Virus record (IMG/VR): IMGVR_UViG_3300046171_000155
Reading direction: 5' to 3' (one strand)
Source: a virus
DNA: 64,000 nucleotides
Every line of letters starts with the position of its first letter. Positions within the stretch are counted from its first letter, which is position 1. The notes beneath the pieces are model-generated. The model saw only the letters and a list, made by a program, of their open reading frames with translations, was not told the DNA's origin and did not search any database. Made by a program: the position numbers and the translations under genes. Shown piece by piece: positions 26,109-36,292 of this stretch.

Positions 26109-29100
26109 TTATGCAACCCTTGCGTATAGAGTATACGTCTCGACCACATTAGTTAGTGAGTCAGAGATTGTTGCACCTACGTAGTTACCTAGGAACGATC
26201 GTGCGTAGTTACCTACGAAGTCACGGTTATAGTTTCCTTCGAATCCACGAGTATAGTTACCAGTGAAGTCACCTACGTATGTTGAAACACGATTACGTGA
26301 GTAAGCACCTGAGTAAGCAGATGTTCTGATACGTGCGTATGCAGATACGCGGACACGAGAGTAGTTACCTACAAAGTCACGAGAGTAAGTACCAGTGTAC
26401 TCACCTACGAAACCACGGTTGTAGTTACCTACATAGTTCCCTGCGAAGTCACGCGAGTAAGCACCTGTGTATTCACCAACGAATCCACGAGCATAGTTAC
26501 CTACATAATCACCAGCAAATCCGCGAGTGTATGCACCAGTGTATTCACCAGCGAATCCACGTGAGTAAGCACCTGTGTACTCACCTACGAAACCACGGTT
26601 ATAGTTTCCTACGAAGTCTCCGACAAAGTCACGAGCATATGCACCAGTGTACTCACCTGCAAACGTTCTTGCGTAGTTACCTACGAAGTCGCCGGCAAAT
26701 TGACGTGTGTACTGACCTGAGAAAGTACGCGCATAGTTACCAGTGAATGTTGTGTTATACGTACCAGCATATTCACCAACGAAACCTCTTGCGTAGTTAC
26801 CAGTATAGTCACCAGCGAAGTTACGGTTGTAAGTGCCAGAGTAAGCACCAGTGTACTCACCTACGAATCCACGAGAGTAAGCACCAGTGTACTGACCAGA
26901 GAATCCACGAGAGTAGTTACCCACATAGTTTCCACCGAAGTTACGTGCATAGTTACCTACATAGTTACCAGCGAAGTCCCCAACGAAATCACCGACGAAG
27001 TTGCCAGCGAAGTTGCGTGAGTAGTTGCCAGTAAATGTGCGAGAATAGTTACCAGTAAAGTCACCTGCAAAGTTAGTCACACGATCACGAGTGTATGCAG
27101 AAGAACGGTTGCGGACATATGCAGATACACGAGTTCGTGCGTATGCAGAGTAACGAGTGCGTGTTGATGTGCGAGTGTACTCACCAGTAAAGTTACCAGC
27201 AAAGTCACCTGCGAATCCACGCGCGTAGTTACCAACAAAGTCACCGACAAAGTCGCGAGCATAGTTGCCGCTGAAGTTACCTTCGAAGTTAGTTACACGA
27301 TCACGAGTAAAGTCACCAACATAGTTGGTTACACGAGTACGAGCATATGCTATTAGCATAGGTTGCGGTGAAAAGACCTGAGTCCTGTTACGAGTGTATT
27401 CGCCTACGAAGTCGCCTGCATAGGACCCAGTACGTGTGTAGTTACCAGTATTCGTGTATACTGCAGTGCGGTCACGAGTGAATGCACGAGCGTAGTTACC
27501 AGTGTAGTACAATGTACGAGTGTAGTAACCAGTGTTTGTAGAAGTACGTGTAGAAGTACGCGCATAGTTACCTGTATAAGATGCAGCGCGTGTACGAGAG
27601 TAGTTACCCACAAAGTTACCAGCGTAGTTAGTTACACGAGTACGACCGTAGTTACCAGTATAGTTACCTGCGCGAGTACGACCGTAGTTACCTACGAAGT
27701 TTCCAGTATAACCAGTTGCACGAGTTCGTGTGTATGCAGATGCACGATTACGCGTAAAGTTACGCGAGTAAGCGCCTGAGAAGTACTGGGTTCTCGTATA
27801 TGCAGATGCACGATTACGCGTAAAGTTACGCGAGTAAGCGCCTGAGTAGTACTGGTTTCTCGTATAGTTACCTGTATAGTTGCCAGCGTAAGAAAAATTA
27901 TTGTTATAAGAGAACGCATTTTGGGTAATTGAATAAAACACCTGTTGTCCAAGAGCGCTCTGATATGTACCACGCGACCAACTCATTCCGTTACTATTCG
28001 ATAGTGTTGATGCACCTGCGGTACCGATTGCTCTACTAAATCCGTTCCAATAAGCAAAAGCCATATAAGATTCATAATCAATTTCCCAATAAGTGCTATA
28101 TGCAACATATGTTGGTCCCTGTGCAGCCACACTTACTGTTGAGGTTCTAGTAGATGTTCGAGTGGAAGTTCTCGTAAAGGTTCCTACGCGACTATAATCT
28201 CCACCGTATGCACGTGAGTAGTTACCAGCAAAGTTGCGTGAATAAGATGCTGTGCGACTATAATCTCCACCGTATGCGCGTGAATAGTTGCCTGTAAAGT
28301 TACGTGAATAGTTACCTGCGAAGTTTCCAGTATAACCAGTTGCACGAGTTCGAGAATAGTTACCTGCATATGAGAATGCGCGGTTACGTGAGTAGTTACC
28401 AGCGAAGTTGCCTTCAAAGTTAGTAACGCGATCACGAGAGTAGTTACCTACATATGATGCAGCACGGTTACGAGTATAGTTACCTACGAAGTCACCTGCG
28501 TAGTATAGAGTACGAGTATATGATGGCGTAGTTGCATATGCGGCAGAATAGTTACGAGCATAGTTGCCTACGAAGTTACCAGTGTAGTACAATGTACGCG
28601 TATAGTTCAATGTACGAGTTGAAGTACGTGTTGAAGTACGCGCATAGTTACCAGTAAAGTCACCAGTGTAGTTGCCAGCATAGTTACGAGCATAGTTTCC
28701 TACGAAATCGCCAGTAAATGTAGTTGCATAGTTACCTACAAAGTTTCCGGCATAGTTAGTAACACGTAGTCGGGTAAAGTTGCCGACATAGTTAGTAACG
28801 CGTGTACGAGCATAAGCACTGTAACGAGTACGAGTAGATGTACGAGTTGAAACACGAGCATAGTTACCGACATAGTTGCCAGCAAAACCACGTGAGTAGT
28901 TACCTACAAAGTTACGTGCATAGTTGCCTTGGAAAGAACGCGAGTAGTTTCCTACGAAGTTACCAGCAAAGTTGGTTACACGGTTACGAGTATATGTTGA
29001 TACACGTGCACGAGAATAAACACCAGCAAAGTTGGTTACACGATCACGAGTGTAGTTAGTTACACGGGTGCGTGTGTAATCTGCAGAGTATGCAGAGACG

Positions 29101-30650
29101 CGTGTACGAGTTGAGGTACGAGCATACGCAGAAACACGGTTACGCGAGTAAGTTCCCGCATAAGCAGAAACACGGTTACGTGAGTAAGTGCCTGAGTAAG
29201 TACCTGTGTATGATGAAACGCGTGTGCGAGTATAGTTTGCAGAGTATGAAGAACTGCGTGTACGCGAGTAAGTACCTGCGTATGAAGAGACACGACCACG
29301 AGTGTACGAAGATGCACGACTACGTGAGAATGTTCCGGTGAAGTTAGTCACACGGTTACGAGTGTATGTTGATACACGTGCACGGTTATAAGTTCCTGCG
29401 AAGTAACCAGTAAATGCGGTCAATCGGTTACGAGTATATGATGAAACTCTTGTGCGAGCATATGTGCCCGAGTACGCAGAAGTACGAGTTCGCGAATAAG
29501 TTCCTGAGTAAGCAGAAACGCGAGTACGACCGTAGTTGTCTGAGTAAGACGAATTACGAGTACGCGAGTAAGTACCAGTGTATGAAGATACGCGAGTACG
29601 ACCATAGTCAGCAGCATATGCTGAACTGCGGTTACGTGAGTAAGTACCGTCATAAGTTGAAGTACGCGTACGAGCATAATTACCTTCAAATCCACGAGTA
29701 TAGTTACCAGTGAAGTCACGCGTATATGCACCAGTGTAATCCCCCACGAAAGTTCGTGAGAAAGTGTTGACACTGTTGCGAGTATATGATGAAATGCGGT
29801 CACGACTATATGCAGAAATACGAGTACGAGCATACGAAGAAACACGGTTACGAGTGTAATCGGTATCTATGATTGTGCGTCGTGAGTTCTCTGCACTACC
29901 ACGAGCATGCCATGTTCCTGGCAAGATAGGTGCACCCTGAGCAGAAGATCTTAACTGATAAGATCCAATTGCGCCTGGGACCGATCGTAATGTCTTAGCT
30001 CGTTGACCTAGAGTAAAAGACATTTGACCGTTGGTCATCTCTTTGAAACCATCAAAGGATGAACCATCATAACAGATGGCGACCGGACGTTCTTCATCAG
30101 GTGCTATGTATGAACCGTCTTTTTGATAAATGTGGTAAGCTGTTGTTGTGCCGTCACCAAGTGTATCGGTGAAGACATTAGAAATAGCAACCTTATAATC
30201 AGGACTTGGTGGAATAGAAGATAGTCTATAAATTCCATTCCATTGGTTTGTTTCCATTGTGCTTAATGCACGAGTTACAAGGAGGTCTAGATCACCATCC
30301 GTCATTTCATAGAAACCCGGATTGTCACCTAGCTCGTAATAACCAACAGGACGTACAAAATTTTCTCCAGACTCATCAGCAGTACCGCCTACTTGCTTTA
30401 GCGTAGTAGTTACGGTGGTACTAGTGATGTTAGATGCAGGGTGTGTTCCTGCCACTTCATTGTAGTATGTATCTACAAATGAACCAATATTAACACCATC
30501 AGTAAGACTGAGGTTGCCTGTGTCACTAGCAGCGGCCGCTGTTAGTGCTTCAGATACGGCATACGCAAGATATTCTTCTTGCGAAGGCGTAAATTCCTGT
30601 AAGTCACCATTAGCATTTTGAATTTTTAGTGGAATACTAGATGTTGACAC
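26109..30650 (-). CDS. Giant tetrapeptide-repeat virion protein A (1513 aa): globular base, two arms of about 570 aa and a central tip domain
   Basis: 4-residue periodicity (xRxR, xSxY, xGxY, xRxF) over about 1150 aa; own late promoter and terminator. Confidence 0.75.
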   Translation of the reverse strand: MSTSSIPLKIQNANGDLQEFTPSQEEYLAYAVSEALTAAAASDTGNLSLTDGVNIGSFVDTYYNEVAGTHPASNITSTTVTTTLKQVGGTADESGENFVRPVGYYELGDNPGFYEMTDGDLDLLVTRALSTMETNQWNGIYRLSSIPPSPDYKVAISNVFTDTLGDGTTTAYHIYQKDGSYIAPDEERPVAICYDGSSFDGFKEMTNGQMSFTLGQRAKTLRSVPGAIGSYQLRSSAQGAPILPGTWHARGSAENSRRTIIDTDYTRNRVSSYARTRISAYSRDRISSYTRNSVNTFSRTFVGDYTGAYTRDFTGNYTRGFEGNYARTRTSTYDGTYSRNRSSAYAADYGRTRVSSYTGTYSRTRNSSYSDNYGRTRVSAYSGTYSRTRTSAYSGTYARTRVSSYTRNRLTAFTGYFAGTYNRARVSTYTRNRVTNFTGTFSRSRASSYTRGRVSSYAGTYSRTRSSSYSANYTRTRVSSYTGTYSGTYSRNRVSAYAGTYSRNRVSAYARTSTRTRVSAYSADYTRTRVTNYTRDRVTNFAGVYSRARVSTYTRNRVTNFAGNFVGNYSRSFQGNYARNFVGNYSRGFAGNYVGNYARVSTRTSTRTRYSAYARTRVTNYVGNFTRLRVTNYAGNFVGNYATTFTGDFVGNYARNYAGNYTGDFTGNYARTSTRTSTRTLNYTRTLYYTGNFVGNYARNYSAAYATTPSYTRTLYYAGDFVGNYTRNRAASYVGNYSRDRVTNFEGNFAGNYSRNRAFSYAGNYSRTRATGYTGNFAGNYSRNFTGNYSRAYGGDYSRTASYSRNFAGNYSRAYGGDYSRVGTFTRTSTRTSTRTSTVSVAAQGPTYVAYSTYWEIDYESYMAFAYWNGFSRAIGTAGASTLSNSNGMSWSRGTYQSALGQQVFYSITQNAFSYNNNFSYAGNYTGNYTRNQYYSGAYSRNFTRNRASAYTRTQYFSGAYSRNFTRNRASAYTRTRATGYTGNFVGNYGRTRAGNYTGNYGRTRVTNYAGNFVGNYSRTRAASYTGNYARTSTRTSTNTGYYTRTLYYTGNYARAFTRDRTAVYTNTGNYTRTGSYAGDFVGEYTRNRTQVFSPQPMLIAYARTRVTNYVGDFTRDRVTNFEGNFSGNYARDFVGDFVGNYARGFAGDFAGNFTGEYTRTSTRTRYSAYARTRVSAYVRNRSSAYTRDRVTNFAGDFTGNYSRTFTGNYSRNFAGNFVGDFVGDFAGNYVGNYARNFGGNYVGNYSRGFSGQYTGAYSRGFVGEYTGAYSGTYNRNFAGDYTGNYARGFVGEYAGTYNTTFTGNYARTFSGQYTRQFAGDFVGNYARTFAGEYTGAYARDFVGDFVGNYNRGFVGEYTGAYSRGFAGEYTGAYTRGFAGDYVGNYARGFVGEYTGAYSRDFAGNYVGNYNRGFVGEYTGTYSRDFVGNYSRVRVSAYARIRTSAYSGAYSRNRVSTYVGDFTGNYTRGFEGNYNRDFVGNYARSFLGNYVGATISDSLTNVVETYTLYARVA

Positions 30651-30718: not shown

Positions 30719-30743
30719 TAAAAAATCCCCTAAGAGTTAGGGG
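30719..30743 (-). terminator. Terminator overlapping the chaperone stop codon
   Basis: CCCCTAA-CTC-TTAGGGG followed by A and a T-run. Confidence 0.6.
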
Positions 30744-31215
30744 TTGTAGGCCAATTTACTTCCGCGACGGAAAGTATCGCTCCTAAATTATCTGTAACAT
30801 CTCTTAACGATTGACGGTAATTTTTCCATCCTATTCGTTGTTCTTCAGTCAAAGGACTGTCCGCCACTTGAGTCCAATCTGTTAATGACAATTTTCTATT
30901 TCTTTCTACCCTGATATCGTTCAGTAAATCTTCTCGGTTAAACTCCCATCCACCCAGTTCATTGCTCCAAGTGGCATGCCTATTAGGCGGACTACCAATA
31001 AAAATAAATTCTCCATCCGATGGAACATACCAATAATAACTCATAAAGTGACGAAGATCTTCGCACCCTGCAGGGACTCTATCTTCTGTTATGTGAAGTA
31101 TTAACTCTTTTCCATCTTCAGAGACACCGGCTGGATCTATTTTAAAAGTAGGGTATGAAATCCTATTTATTTTACCAGACACTTTATCTACGTAGACGAT
31201 GTATTTCAATTCCAT
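30730..31215 (-). CDS. Tail fibre assembly chaperone
   Basis: IRVERNRKLSLTDWTQVADSPL...WKNYRQSLRDVT...VNWPTTP. Confidence 0.85.
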   Translation of the reverse strand: MELKYIVYVDKVSGKINRISYPTFKIDPAGVSEDGKELILHITEDRVPAGCEDLRHFMSYYWYVPSDGEFIFIGSPPNRHATWSNELGGWEFNREDLLNDIRVERNRKLSLTDWTQVADSPLTEEQRIGWKNYRQSLRDVTDNLGAILSVAEVNWPTTPNS

Positions 31216-31261: not shown

Positions 31262-34200
31262 TCACTCAAGTCCAACATTTTCAGAAGTAAATGTTGTAGT
31301 AAATGTTGGGGTGTATGTTGGGGTGAATGTTGGAGTATATGTTGGGGTATATGTTGGTGTTGTAGAATCTGTTGATGTGCTTGACACCTTAGTGACTGTG
31401 TACTCTCCTGAGTTCAACCATTGACTTCCATTGTAGAAACCAATAGTGTATTGTTTTGTTTGTCCTTCTGCAGGTACATCTGAAACAGTAACGGTTTGAG
31501 CACCATTAGCGTTCTGTATAGAGAATGATTGAAGGAGAGTTAAGTTGTTATTATAAATTCGACCTTGAACTGACTGACCCCCTTGCGTATTAAAATCAAA
31601 CTCTACCGTATGTGTCGTCGCGCTATGGTGTACAACATTTTGAGTCGTTGATAAAATAGTGCCGATGTCATTATCATACAAAGTAAATGACTTTGAGTCA
31701 AGTACTCGCACATTAGATGATCCTCTAGGTTCAGACATTAAAGATGCGGTATTGCCTGTTCTCAATTCAGCAACGAATGTTTCTCCTTGCCAACCAATTT
31801 CAGAATCTTCTTGACTTCCTGTTCCAGTGCGTGTATAATTGCCTATGTAGTTTCCTGTATAGCCTCCTACAAATGTTCTCTCGTAAGCACCACCAAATGT
31901 ATTTGCATAGGAGCTAGATCTAGCGCGAGTACTGGTTCTATTATAAGTGCCTTCGTAAGCGCCAGTATATTCACCAACAAACCCTCTACTATAATTTTCT
32001 TCAAAAGGTCTTGTATAATCACGAGAATAATTTCCAGTATATTCACCGGCGTAGTTTCCAGAATAATTACCAGTGTAGTTAGAACCTATTGATCTAGCGA
32101 ACTCAACAGTATAGTTTCCGATGAATGGTGTTAAAAAATCACCTGTATAGTTACCAGCGAAGTTGCCTACATACTCTCCAACATACCCACGTGCATAGTT
32201 TCCAGTGTAATTGCCTACAAGGAAGTCTCTAGTAAAATATCCAGCCCCTTGTGTAACTCTTGTGCGAGTAAATTCTCTGCTATAATTTCCGCCGAAGTTG
32301 CGTGAATAGTTCCCTACGAAGTTTGCAGTATAGTTTCCAAAATAGTTTCTGCTATAATTACCAACAAAGGTGCCAGCAAAATCACCGACATAATCTCCAA
32401 CATACCCACGCGCATATTCACCTACAAACCCAGTACTATAGGACCTAGTATATGCCGAATCACGACTTCTAGAGTAATCTGTTATTCTTGTTCTGTTATA
32501 ATTGCCCGCAAAGTTGCCCACAGAAGTGCGTGAATAGTTCCCCTCAAAAGTAGAAGTTCTTATGAGAATGAAGTTTCTACTATAGTATAACGTTCTAGTG
32601 AAGTTGCGTGAATAGTTGATAGCATAATCTATGGATCTTGTATAATTACCTGTAAAGTTTCCAGCAAACCCTCTTGAATAATTACCTACATAATAAAGGG
32701 TTCTACTATAACTAGAGGACCTTACTCTAGCATACCCATCATGCGGAACCTCATATTCTATAGGATCACCATTTATATCAGTCTCAGGTAATGTAGATAT
32801 TCTGGTAGATGCATAGTATCCAGTTCCAGTTCTTGTGCGAGTGTATCCACGAATAAAGTCCCTCGCATAGTTAAAGTCTCGCGAGTAAGTGCCTGTAAAC
32901 GGAGCAGTAAATTCACTGGAATATGTCGCGCCGTTGGTAAATGATTGAGTACGATCCCTAGTAAAATTACGCGTATATTCAGTAGTTGTTCCAGTAGGGG
33001 CCGCGGTAGAACTTGTGGTTCCTTGACCAACTTCATAATACTTGGTGCCACCTATTGTAGCGATTAAATCACCTCTCCAGTAATAAATGTTATCGTTACC
33101 TTTTAACTTAGTTGGGCCGTTGCCATAATCCCGCGTGTCATTAAGTACTTTCGTTGTTCCGTTCCATTTAATATTGGTGACATGTACTGTGATCGAAAAC
33201 CCTTCGGAATTACTAGTATTAGTATCAACTGAGAAGAAAGTGTTGTTTGCAGTGTAAAAATATCCATCGCCAATGGTACGTGTATATCCACGAGAATAGT
33301 TACCAGTAAAAGTACTAATTCTTCCTGCTGCAGCGAAGTCGCCAACATAGTTGCCTGTGTAAGTGCCTTCGTAACCAACAGTTCTCGTAAAGTTGCGTGT
33401 GAATCCACGAGAATAGTTTCCTATATAATATAAGGTTCTTGTAGAGTCGGCTGGGAAATAAACTCCAGTAAATTCTCCGACATAAGAACCGACTGTTGTT
33501 CTGGTGCGACTATAGGCAGAATATCGCGTACGGGTAGATGTGCGAGTAAATTCTACTGCTGGGTTTACATAATTCCCAAGATAATTTCTAGCGTATGACC
33601 CCACCCTAGTATAGTCACCAGCATAGTTACCAGTGTAACTTGCGCTAGTCGTTCTCGCATAATCACCTACAAAATTCGTAACTCTGGTTCGCCCGTAGTT
33701 GCCAACAAAGTTCCCAGTAAAAGTTGCAGTATATGTACTAGAGTAATACTCGTTACGAGTCACGCCTCTAGTGCGACTATATGTAGAGTAACGTGTGCGA
33801 CTATATGTTACCGTACTTGGCATTCTAAAATAATACGCAACATCACCAGTGGGAAAGTCTCTAGAGTACTCTTGTGGTCCAGTTAATATAGCATTTCTTG
33901 TAAACTCTCTAGCGTAATATGCTGTATAGGATACAGTACGATCTCTGGTATACGCAGAAACTCTCGACCTTGTATAGTTTCTACTGTAGTAGCCAATATA
34001 TGATGCACCATAACTACGAGCATACGATGAAGTTCGGGTAGCTTGTCTGCTTCGGTTGTAGGTAGAGTAACGTGTACGACTATATGTCACCGTACTTGGC
34101 ATTCTAAAATAATACGCAACATCACCATTGGGAAGGTTTCTAGAGTACTCTTGTATTTCAGTTAATGTAGAATTTCTTGTGAAGTTTCCTGTGTAGGTCC

Positions 34201-35575
34201 CCAAGAACTCTCTAGAGTAATTCGTAGTATCTGTTCTGCTGTATCCCGCTACAAATGCAGAGGTTCTGGTTCTTGAATATGTCGCAGAAAAAGATCGCGC
34301 GTACCCTTCAACTCTTGTTCTATCATAAGTACTTGTTCTTGTTCGAGCGTATGCTCCAGAATACTCTCCGGTATATTCTCCAACATAATTACGAGCAAAA
34401 TCTCTTGAGAACGACCCTGCTACACTTCGAGAGTATGAAGATATTCTATTTCTTGAATATGTGCCTATGTAATCAGCAACATTGGTATATGAGACTGATC
34501 TCGATGAGGTGGGAGAAGTTGTTGTGAAGGTTGCGCTTTTAGTATCACCAAAGAAAGCTACTCTGTCCGACCCTAAGTCGTTCCCAGAACCAGAAGTTTG
34601 AAACACTCGAACATGATATGCACCTTCTTCAGAAGTATTCGCATTGAATGTAATAGAACTTCCTTCTGTAATTGCAGATCCTGATTGATATGTCAGAGAT
34701 CCAGTAGCGTTTTGATCTCCGGAACCGTCACCATCTGAGTCAACATCACCGCCACCACCAGGAGGTTCATAGGTACCAGACCCACCAGTTCTCAAGGTTG
34801 CGCCTAGAAGACTGCCTGTAGGATAAACTTTGAGTCTCTGGTCGCCATTTTGTAAATCCACAATAGCATCATAAGCTGAAGCTAATGTGCTACCAACCCT
34901 TAGACCAAAAAAGTCCGATCCGTGTGAGTTTTGAGCAGACCATTCAATATTTACATATTCGTTCGTATCTTTGGTCATTACATACGAGCTAGATTCTGTC
35001 CCTACTTCATTACTAAGAAGAGGTGGTAACCATGAAACGATATCAAAGTTAAAGTTTGTTCCTAATGCGCGACTATCAAACGCGACTTCTCCATAGCTTG
35101 TGACAATTCGCAGACCTCGGTCTATACTAGTATCATAACGGCTTGGGTCGGCCATAATGGTAGATGCTTTTCTGACAACAAAATAATCAAACTCTGTTTG
35201 CCAGTCATCATAAACTGCGAGTTTCCAATTTTCAAATTGTCCGTCTATTTGAGGGGTGTATGCTTCTATGCCTGTTCCAGTAAAGGTTACCGTTTCCCCA
35301 GAGACATTCATTTTGTGAAGATAAGGTGTATCAAAAGTGACCGTCATGATATCATCTGAAGGCACTTGAATATCAACAGAACTCCAGTCACCGCCACCAG
35401 GCGCGCTAGGGTTCTTAACAAATATCATATCACTTTCTAATAGACCGCCTGGAAGTGTGAACGAGTGTGCACGACCAGCATCTGTGACAATCAGATTAAG
35501 AATGTCCAGTTCTGTGTCCGATACAGTAAATGTTCCACCGGCATCATTGCCTATTATCTTTAATCCATATGACAT
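31262..35575 (-). CDS. Giant tetrapeptide-repeat virion protein B (1437 aa); repeat arms inserted within a Calx-beta/Ig-like domain
   Basis: MSYGL N-terminal domain; same xRxR/xGxY/xRxF units as protein A; C-terminal TPTY repeats. Confidence 0.72.
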   Translation of the reverse strand: MSYGLKIIGNDAGGTFTVSDTELDILNLIVTDAGRAHSFTLPGGLLESDMIFVKNPSAPGGGDWSSVDIQVPSDDIMTVTFDTPYLHKMNVSGETVTFTGTGIEAYTPQIDGQFENWKLAVYDDWQTEFDYFVVRKASTIMADPSRYDTSIDRGLRIVTSYGEVAFDSRALGTNFNFDIVSWLPPLLSNEVGTESSSYVMTKDTNEYVNIEWSAQNSHGSDFFGLRVGSTLASAYDAIVDLQNGDQRLKVYPTGSLLGATLRTGGSGTYEPPGGGGDVDSDGDGSGDQNATGSLTYQSGSAITEGSSITFNANTSEEGAYHVRVFQTSGSGNDLGSDRVAFFGDTKSATFTTTSPTSSRSVSYTNVADYIGTYSRNRISSYSRSVAGSFSRDFARNYVGEYTGEYSGAYARTRTSTYDRTRVEGYARSFSATYSRTRTSAFVAGYSRTDTTNYSREFLGTYTGNFTRNSTLTEIQEYSRNLPNGDVAYYFRMPSTVTYSRTRYSTYNRSRQATRTSSYARSYGASYIGYYSRNYTRSRVSAYTRDRTVSYTAYYAREFTRNAILTGPQEYSRDFPTGDVAYYFRMPSTVTYSRTRYSTYSRTRGVTRNEYYSSTYTATFTGNFVGNYGRTRVTNFVGDYARTTSASYTGNYAGDYTRVGSYARNYLGNYVNPAVEFTRTSTRTRYSAYSRTRTTVGSYVGEFTGVYFPADSTRTLYYIGNYSRGFTRNFTRTVGYEGTYTGNYVGDFAAAGRISTFTGNYSRGYTRTIGDGYFYTANNTFFSVDTNTSNSEGFSITVHVTNIKWNGTTKVLNDTRDYGNGPTKLKGNDNIYYWRGDLIATIGGTKYYEVGQGTTSSTAAPTGTTTEYTRNFTRDRTQSFTNGATYSSEFTAPFTGTYSRDFNYARDFIRGYTRTRTGTGYYASTRISTLPETDINGDPIEYEVPHDGYARVRSSSYSRTLYYVGNYSRGFAGNFTGNYTRSIDYAINYSRNFTRTLYYSRNFILIRTSTFEGNYSRTSVGNFAGNYNRTRITDYSRSRDSAYTRSYSTGFVGEYARGYVGDYVGDFAGTFVGNYSRNYFGNYTANFVGNYSRNFGGNYSREFTRTRVTQGAGYFTRDFLVGNYTGNYARGYVGEYVGNFAGNYTGDFLTPFIGNYTVEFARSIGSNYTGNYSGNYAGEYTGNYSRDYTRPFEENYSRGFVGEYTGAYEGTYNRTSTRARSSSYANTFGGAYERTFVGGYTGNYIGNYTRTGTGSQEDSEIGWQGETFVAELRTGNTASLMSEPRGSSNVRVLDSKSFTLYDNDIGTILSTTQNVVHHSATTHTVEFDFNTQGGQSVQGRIYNNNLTLLQSFSIQNANGAQTVTVSDVPAEGQTKQYTIGFYNGSQWLNSGEYTVTKVSSTSTDSTTPTYTPTYTPTFTPTYTPTFTTTFTSENVGLE

Positions 35576-35896: not shown

Positions 35897-36292
35897 TTAT
35901 GGTGATTCAGGCCAAACTACATCTTCTAAACTAGAATATTGGTTTGTGATATCCCTCAGTTCTTGACGATAGATTGCCCATATCTCACGATCGTCATCGT
36001 CTAGACCATTATCGTCCATACGAGTCCAATCTGTTTCAGAGAGTAACTGATTACGTTTTTTTCGTAAATTTTCTATACGGATTTTTTCTACAATTTCATC
36101 AGGAAATGGTAATACTAATTGTGCAACAATATCTTTTGATTCGATATACTTATCAACAAGTAAACAAAAATTAATGTCGTATTCTTCTTGAGTAGGAACA
36201 TATAATTTCCAATCATTAGACGGCAATATATTCCCATCAAAAGATTGAGGAGATCCTATTGGGTTTCCGTTTTCTATTCTTATAAATTGCAT
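35897..36292 (-). CDS. Tail fibre assembly chaperone (second copy)
   Basis: LRKKRNQLLSETDWT...WAIYRQELRDIT...VVWPESP. Confidence 0.85.
   Translation of the reverse strand: MQFIRIENGNPIGSPQSFDGNILPSNDWKLYVPTQEEYDINFCLLVDKYIESKDIVAQLVLPFPDEIVEKIRIENLRKKRNQLLSETDWTRMDDNGLDDDDREIWAIYRQELRDITNQYSSLEDVVWPESP

Follow-up and report, generated by a model that had tools for sequence, protein, structure and literature searches.

The stretch of viral DNA analysed here (IMG/VR virus record IMGVR_UViG_3300046171_000155; 64,000 nucleotides, hereafter the window) carries on its minus strand a gene for a tail-fibre protein of 1513 residues, P0001 (26109..30650, taken from the open reading frame list and its translation). 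The shaft of this fibre is very probably a giant fold-back, in which two paired 22-residue duplications, one in each arm, form a matched pair that keeps the arms in register. The two arms are equal in length, indels and repeats are paired between them at mirror positions, and a single register of facing residues is complementary. Along the protein, a base domain is followed by an N-terminal arm (N-arm), a tip, a C-terminal arm (C-arm) and a C-terminal strand. The base domain (residues 1 to ~262; 29865..30650) is non-repetitive, and the N-arm (residues 266-838; 28137..29855) is built from four-residue units, every fourth residue being Tyr or Phe, or Arg in part of the arm. The tip at the centre (residues 839-921; 27888..28136) is a small, aromatic, non-repeat globular domain, the C-arm (residues 922-1489; 26184..27887) again consists of four-residue units (xGxY and xRxF), and the conserved C-terminal strand (26112..26183), which ends in GATISDSLTNVVETYTLYARVA, is predicted to dock on the base domain. 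All of these features, like those of the fibre gene given below, lie on the minus strand.

In the mechanism that we propose, the chain would leave the base domain and run out for about 575 residues as four-residue repeats, form a small variable tip that is probably the host-binding part, and return over about 570 residues, antiparallel to and in register with the outgoing arm, with the final ~24 residues docking on the base domain. In this arrangement the partner of N-arm residue i would be C-arm residue ~1755-i (with a constant of 1755 in the proximal and 1754 in the distal part), and a change of length in one arm would break this register unless the facing site changed equally. The 22-residue duplications would be such a matched pair, with facing stutters, and would have made the fibre longer by one 22-residue module, or ~7 nm for an extended chain. 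The fibre as a whole is presumably an oligomer.

Paired 66-bp duplications in the two arms

The tandem duplication of the N-arm comprises two units of 66 bp (28176..28307, residues 782-825) that read SRNFTGNYSRAYGGDYSRTASY and SRNFAGNYSRAYGGDYSRVGTF. Over their full 66 nt, the units at 28242-28307 and 28176-28241 share 82% identity, with agreement at 17 of 22 residues, and the 57-nt copies at 28188-28244 and 28254-28310 are 89% identical. The duplication of the C-arm extends over 2.2 units of 66 bp (27720..27863, residues 930-977), which read TRNQYY SGAYSRNFTRNRASAY, TRTQYF SGAYSRNFTRNRASAY and TRTR; Tandem Repeats Finder places it at 27733-27866 with a period of 66, 2.0 copies and 97% matches. 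Taken as the protein units TRNQYYSGAYSRNFTRNRASAY and TRTQYFSGAYSRNFTRNRASAY (residues 930-973), the C-arm copies have a DNA identity of 95%, and in the frame of residues 934-977 one of 89%. An earlier note on this DNA had described a 22-residue unit occurring twice in each arm, and we recovered both: the 24-mer that it gave for the N-arm is present at 28188 and at 28254, and the longest identical run at offset 66 in the C-arm measures 48 bp and starts at 27733. Its further observation that the two duplications share a 66-bp period and lie at similar distances from the tip proved equally accurate, since the N-arm pair stands 14-57 residues before the tip (residues 839-921) and the C-arm pair 13-56 residues after it.

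Each 22-residue unit is made of four 4-residue steps and one 6-residue stutter, which stands at the end of the unit in the N-arm (SRTASY, SRVGTF) and at its start in the C-arm (TRNQYY, TRTQYF). Judged by DNA identity between copies, the 22-residue pair holds the youngest repeats in the gene. Older pairs include 28-residue repeats, with identities of 70% and 74%, and 24-residue repeats, with 62% and 81%. The 28-residue tandem repeats lie at residues 725-780 in the N-arm (28311..28478) and at residues 977-1032 in the C-arm (27555..27722), and are mirror partners of each other.

Tandem repeats may be collapsed or expanded by short-read assemblers, and the duplications might on that ground be taken for assembly artefacts of a repetitive region, an explanation to which we give next to no weight. 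The copies differ at several sites and the reading frame is kept. Moreover, the window is matched exactly over both sites by Logan contigs of four seawater metagenomes, each from a different study: the pieces 27817-28341, 27817-28348 and 27817-28352 cover both N-arm copies, and the piece 27751-27828, found in contigs of four runs, crosses the junction between the two C-arm copies. Because these independent seawater contigs match across both sites, the two 66-bp duplications are confirmed as genuine.

Mirror placement of repeats and register of the arms

To relate the repeats of one arm to those of the other, all arm tandem repeats with periods of 6-89 residues and identities of 62% or more were listed and compared through a mirror constant K, where i+j=K. 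Five of the nine N-arm repeats, with periods of 24, 12, 12, 28 and 22, have a C-arm partner of equal period at K=1751-1761; other values of K give three matches at most, and two at most outside the flanks of this peak, and random re-placement of the C-arm repeats gave five matches in 0 of 5000 trials. For the 22-residue pair alone, with one such repeat per arm, mirror placement arose in 6% of trials (P ~0.06). Homologues of the fibre protein likewise contain mirror-matched repeats, at other periods (14, 16, 26, 28, 30 and 44), with the best K at their own tip.

To examine the register of the arms, all in-phase K were scanned for which residues come to stand opposite one another at position 2 of each unit. 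Over N-arm residues 266-653 (~97 units), K=1755 is unique, giving 45 Arg:Gly and 0 Arg:Arg, compared with 15-40 Arg:Gly and 6-25 Arg:Arg at all other in-phase K. At this constant, every fourth residue sets an aromatic residue or Arg opposite an aromatic one, gap-free over the ~97 units, and its value is the sum of the arm start and arm end set by the conserved domains (265+1489, plus 1). In the distal part, past a C-arm irregularity of one residue at about 1095, K=1754 fits best. Seventeen homologues show the same register relative to their conserved ends, each with zero Arg:Arg (z 3.1-6.0).

A register trace by dynamic programming found a single break in the N-arm, of +2 near residue 800, after an unbroken course of ~535 residues from 266 to ~800, and three breaks in the C-arm, of +2 at 932 and 954 and of +1 at 1095. 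All +2 stutters of the fibre protein fall inside the 22-residue units. Because the register of K=1754-1755 sets N-arm residues 782-825 against C-arm residues 929-973, the two duplications stand face to face, and the stutters of both arms coincide within one residue. The hairpin that the earlier note had proposed gains support from this Arg:Gly register, and a hairpin is the arrangement that the sequence suggests.

Could two unrelated slippage events have arrived by chance at the same period and at equal distances from the centre? Short tandem repeats abound in the gene (30 Tandem Repeats Finder rows), and the probability given above for mirror placement of the 22-residue period is not small by itself. 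Such a coincidence is nevertheless very improbable, in that five pairs fall under one constant, the same pattern recurs in homologues, and the comparative data (the unique Arg:Gly register and, described below, the paired indels between relatives and the correlation of arm lengths) contradict it.

In composition, Gly, Ser and Thr are abundant in both arms, whose repeat period is 4, and neither arm contains His, Lys, Cys or Trp, leaving Arg as the sole basic residue. The net charge is +72 for the N-arm and +36 for the C-arm. Such strongly basic arms are uncommon for a virion fibre, and their sequence may point to Arg-Tyr stacking or to binding of a polyanionic surface.

Arm lengths, paired indels and tip exchange among homologues

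The base domain is shared by 324 cluster representatives at E<=0.001 and by 108 at E<=1e-30. IMG/VR holds 29 loci, whose complete proteins measure 850-2101 residues, and phage C48C1 (GenBank OQ984149, Kyanoviridae) encodes a homologue of 3347 residues that is annotated 'hypothetical protein' (L001:12001-22044). We compared arm lengths in 18 distinct homologues of 850-3347 residues, segmented by a composition model; segmentation by periodicity only mislabels STRTSTRT linkers and some tips, and the composition model was used for the close subfamily. By this model the arms of the window protein measure 579 (N) and 581 (C) residues. Across the 18 homologues the arms range from 262 to 1060 residues, the lengths of the N-arm and C-arm correlate with r=0.997 and differ by 11.5 residues on average, and N/(N+C) stays within 0.49-0.52 (0.492-0.516). 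Even in C48C1, where the C-arm alone carries five inserted globular domains, the repeat parts still measure 1060 vs 1079 residues. One of these C-arm inserts resembles an insert in the homologue L024. The C48C1 protein also contains an exact 73-residue tandem duplication (2009-2081 and 2082-2154; L001:18025-18462), which may be real or an assembly error.

Pairwise alignment of close relatives shows indels as equal-length, mirror-placed pairs (28/28 three times, 16/16, 12/12 twice and 4/4). The comparison of L004 with L010 gives -28 at 674 in the N-arm and -28 at 1152 in the C-arm, both 412-440 residues from the base; that of L004 with L030 gives +28 at 872 and +28 at 991, and that of L013 with L026 gives -28 at 811 and -28 at 1050. 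Shorter pairs are seen between L013 and L023 (-16 at 610 in the N-arm, -16 at 1256 in the C-arm), between L013 and L017 (+12 at 337, +12 at 1551) and between L004 and L005, where +12 at 590 and +4 at 631 in the N-arm are met by +12 at 1277 and +4 at 1229 in the C-arm. L004 and L022 differ beside the tip by +66 in the N-arm and +68 in the C-arm, and L013 and L029 by a net -12 in each arm. In both L004/L010 and L013/L026, one phage carries two copies of the tandem unit in each arm and its relative a single copy in each, and no discordant copy-number state was seen in these two comparisons. To judge from the alignments, these 28/28 changes are the same type of event as the 22-residue pair of the window, caught as polymorphism. 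The earlier note had held that elongation of one arm must be matched by the other, and had proposed to look in homologues for mirror pairs of indels and for a correlation of arm lengths; carried out on the 18 homologues and on the alignments of close relatives, this comparison bore the claim out, with equal mirror indels, copy numbers of 2+2 vs 1+1 and the correlation given above.

The surroundings of the tip are the most variable part of the protein, with an identity between close relatives of 16-50%. The protein of the IMG/VR locus L002 (L002:10001-14578) is near-identical to that of the window over residues 1-705 and from ~1010 onward; in the region between (window 27621-28535, residues ~706-1010) it has a different tip and different inner arms and is without the 22-residue units. 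The difference in the centre amounts to a mosaic exchange of the module presumed to bind the host. Such central variability and cassette exchange are the pattern expected of a receptor-binding module, which supports the placing of the tip at the distal end, and the tip is likely to bind the host.

Two further differences were seen in the C-arm. Residues 1091-1102 (QVFSPQPMLIAY; window 27345-27380) are its only non-repeat patch, with a register shift of one, and stand where the near-identical L002 protein has STRDSTRNRGSAY; we considered a compensated frameshift relative to L002, which the comparison of the two showed not to be the case. In addition, contigs of three seawater metagenomes carry nine linked single-base variants at 27549-27609 (~residues 1014-1034), a cluster that points to co-existing natural alleles of the fibre gene.

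Exchange of the centre raises a second account of the pair, in which the constraint on the arms holds and the two 22-residue duplications arose together, for example by one patch recombination between two genomes, both of whose ends were aligned one unit out of register, or by import, already balanced, with a central cassette. We regard this joint origin as possible, if rather unlikely. The centre does swap as a cassette between near-identical genes, as the window and L002 show, and the +28/+28 pair of L004 vs L030 flanks a diverged tip. Nor does divergence differ clearly between the two arms, with 6 mismatches in the 57 nt of the N-arm core and 3-7 in the 66 nt of the C-arm, and both pairs are the youngest. 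However, the copies within each arm are alike, which argues that the units were duplicated in place and are not foreign, and the 28/28 pair of L004 vs L010 is set off from the tip by arm sequence that is 92-98% identical, unlike a swapped cassette.

Base domain, fold-back and comparable designs

Structure models were obtained with AlphaFold2 for two homologues, P0037 (496 residues, 49-sequence alignment) and L016 (850 residues, 37 sequences). In both, the N-terminal domain has a predicted local distance difference test score (pLDDT) above 90, and the C-terminal ~25 residues form a confident strand (E470-494 and E825-848, pLDDT up to 95-98) that is modelled alongside the long strand with which the N-terminal domain ends (E244-266 and E249-269). 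Fold alignments take residues 40-496 as a single domain. Given the confidence values and the span of these alignments, the C-terminal strand is predicted to contact the base domain, and in the models of both homologues the C-terminus docks there. The motif ETYTLY(V/A)R(V/I/T)(A/S) is present at the end of all complete relatives inspected, in the window protein as ETYTLYARVA. Because both confident ends model as one domain, the arms and tip would behave as one giant insertion in the base domain. The low-confidence arm models contain no helices. In our reading, the arms would adopt a beta-type conformation.

Searches for a known counterpart returned little. Aligned with VIA-align, the modelled base domain gave its best Z, 7.2-5.2, with MABP/MACPF-C-terminal-like (beta-prism-like) folds, a score within the range of chance arrangements, and a Z of 2.3 with gp11 (1el6), compared for the collar fold of gp10/gp11/gp12; the modelled base domain of the homologues includes the C-terminal strand, and its resemblance to the MABP/MACPF-C-terminal fold is weak. 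Foldseek found no match in the PDB, and Pfam has no family for the fibre protein, which has one weak match in PHROGs, to a family without assigned function. With phmmer against all PDB chains, the whole protein had no match and the N-terminal domain a single one, at E=0.48, to an unrelated protein. The DNA neighbouring the fibre gene had no megablast match among GenBank phages, and a literature search for the fibre family or for phage C48C1 found no description. We somewhat favour the view that the protein has an undescribed fibre fold, a two-arm 'tetrad zipper' with Arg opposite Gly and aromatic residues opposite aromatic residues or Arg, which mirror-paired duplications would have brought to lengths from ~10 to ~350 nm.

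The closest described design is the needle of the T4 long tail fibre protein gp37 (domains D10 and D11); our fibre works like that needle and is not homologous to it. In gp37 the stem is formed by residues 882-931 and 960-1009, the tip by 932-959 and the collar by 811-881 and 1010-1026 (PMC6957217). Common to both is a stem in which two stretches of one chain match in length (50 and 50 in gp37) and which is set into a base ('collar') domain, with a tip, receptor-binding in gp37 and probably also here, inserted mid-stem, and a fibre-assembly chaperone gene nearby. The chain of gp37 returns to its base domain, as would that of our fibre on the evidence of the mirror indels, the register, the equal arms and the modelled strand. 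The two differ in scale, since the stem segments of 50 residues in gp37 compare with ~575 per arm here (~eleven times), and with up to ~1060 in C48C1, and since the whole shaft would fold back here, compared with the last 15 nm in gp37. They also differ in that our fibre has strict four-residue Tyr/Phe-Arg/Gly units; in that gp37 has His-x-His iron sites, whereas here there is no histidine in the arms and no HxH in the protein; and in that the fibre has no sequence similarity to any solved structure.

Alternatively, the arms could pair antiparallel between chains, head to tail, which would put the centre in the middle of a rod of double length, with the C-terminal strand on the base of the neighbour. 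Equal arms, mirror indels and the Arg:Gly register fit such pairing equally well, and AlphaFold monomer models cannot separate a swapped strand from the chain's own. Yet a head-to-tail rod has identical ends, whereas a phage fibre requires a virion end and a host end; the hypervariable, cassette-exchanged centre is as expected of a distal receptor-binding tip; and in the precedent, T4 gp37, each chain folds back on itself (PMC6957217). We therefore hold pairing between chains to be improbable, and infer that the arms pair within one chain.

Several points weigh against the fold-back as we read it. First, the sequence evidence is the same for intrachain and for antiparallel interchain pairing. 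Second, pLDDT is below 50 for all arm residues, and for the tip, in both modelled homologues, and the contact between strand and base was taken from confidence values and the span of fold alignments, not from model coordinates. Third, the homologues share kinship, so that the agreement among them is not fully independent. Fourth, IMG/VR holds no relative with the same tip cassette, and among 5.8 billion proteins nothing exceeds 35% identity to it over the full region; because no such relative was found, neither an ancestral 1+1 nor a discordant 2+1 state of the 22-residue pair is seen. Lastly, among the 72 proteins of the wider family that have one non-repeat centre, half show N/(N+C) of 0.45-0.55 and 22 lie outside 0.40-0.60, with a second mode at ~0.65-0.70 (P0190-like) and a few proteins at ~0.26-0.33 (P0077, P0078 and P0129). 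The lengths before and after the main globular domain stand at ~2:1 in P0190, P0192, P0215, P0120, P0123 and P0127 and at ~1:2 in P0077, P0078 and P0129. The unequal cases are partly a matter of mis-segmentation (P0014); the P0190-like and P0077-like groups look truly unequal in arm length, which additional repeats close to the tip, or a chain that passes a third time, could explain. Strongly unequal arms, which the earlier note had named as evidence against matched elongation, are thus absent from the 18 close relatives, none of which has arms of 2:1 or 1:2, and present in some distant members. Another member, P0219, has three repeat segments (133, 122 and 115 residues) with two globular domains between them.

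The fibre gene sits in the tail and baseplate module of the window, which is the structural module of a T4-like myovirus and encodes major head, portal, terminase, sheath and baseplate wedge proteins. Beside it lies a gene with a tail-fibre-assembly (chaperone) domain (30730..31215, minus strand; phrog_4912, E=1.4e-16), and a second gene with a tail-fibre-assembly domain is found at 35897..36292. The window also encodes a second large repeat protein, P0177 (1437 residues; 31262-35575, minus strand), with 33% identity to fibre residues 770-990 (the tip and inner arms). It resembles the fibre protein in its four-residue arms and related tip, but differs in its base domain, with an N-terminus of MSYGLKI…, and is without the ETYTLYVRxA end, as a parallel family.

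Fold-backs with matched arms are known elsewhere. SMC/Rad50 proteins form antiparallel intramolecular coiled coils, in which the chain turns back at a hinge or hook, and their arm lengths match and co-vary across species. Those are alpha-helical heptads in chromosome proteins, whereas the virion fibre has a period of 4 with an aromatic at each fourth residue, and in the fibre recent tandem duplications are visible as matched pairs. As in an RNA stem, distant segments of the fibre protein would face each other antiparallel, a change on one side would need a matching change on the other, and a rule of complementarity sets the register; unlike an RNA stem, the fibre is protein, and co-variation is shown mainly in length and repeat period.

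Comparative sequence alone would here fix the facing residues over more than 1100 residues, a resolution otherwise usual only for RNA, and the paired 2+2 vs 1+1 states offer a clear case of compensatory indel evolution in a protein. If true, the tetrad zipper would be the protein counterpart of RNA-stem evolution, yielding modular, length-programmable nanofibres with an exchangeable tip. The results bear as well on the failure of structure predictors for such fibres and on how fibres of a desired length might be designed. They indicate very long fold-back fibres, ~190 nm here if the chain is extended, in an abundant group of marine T4-like phages; the host-binding tip of these fibres would be coded mid-gene, and their length would be adjusted by module. 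For the annotation of host-range determinants in marine viromes, this would mean that the variable part is central, not C-terminal.

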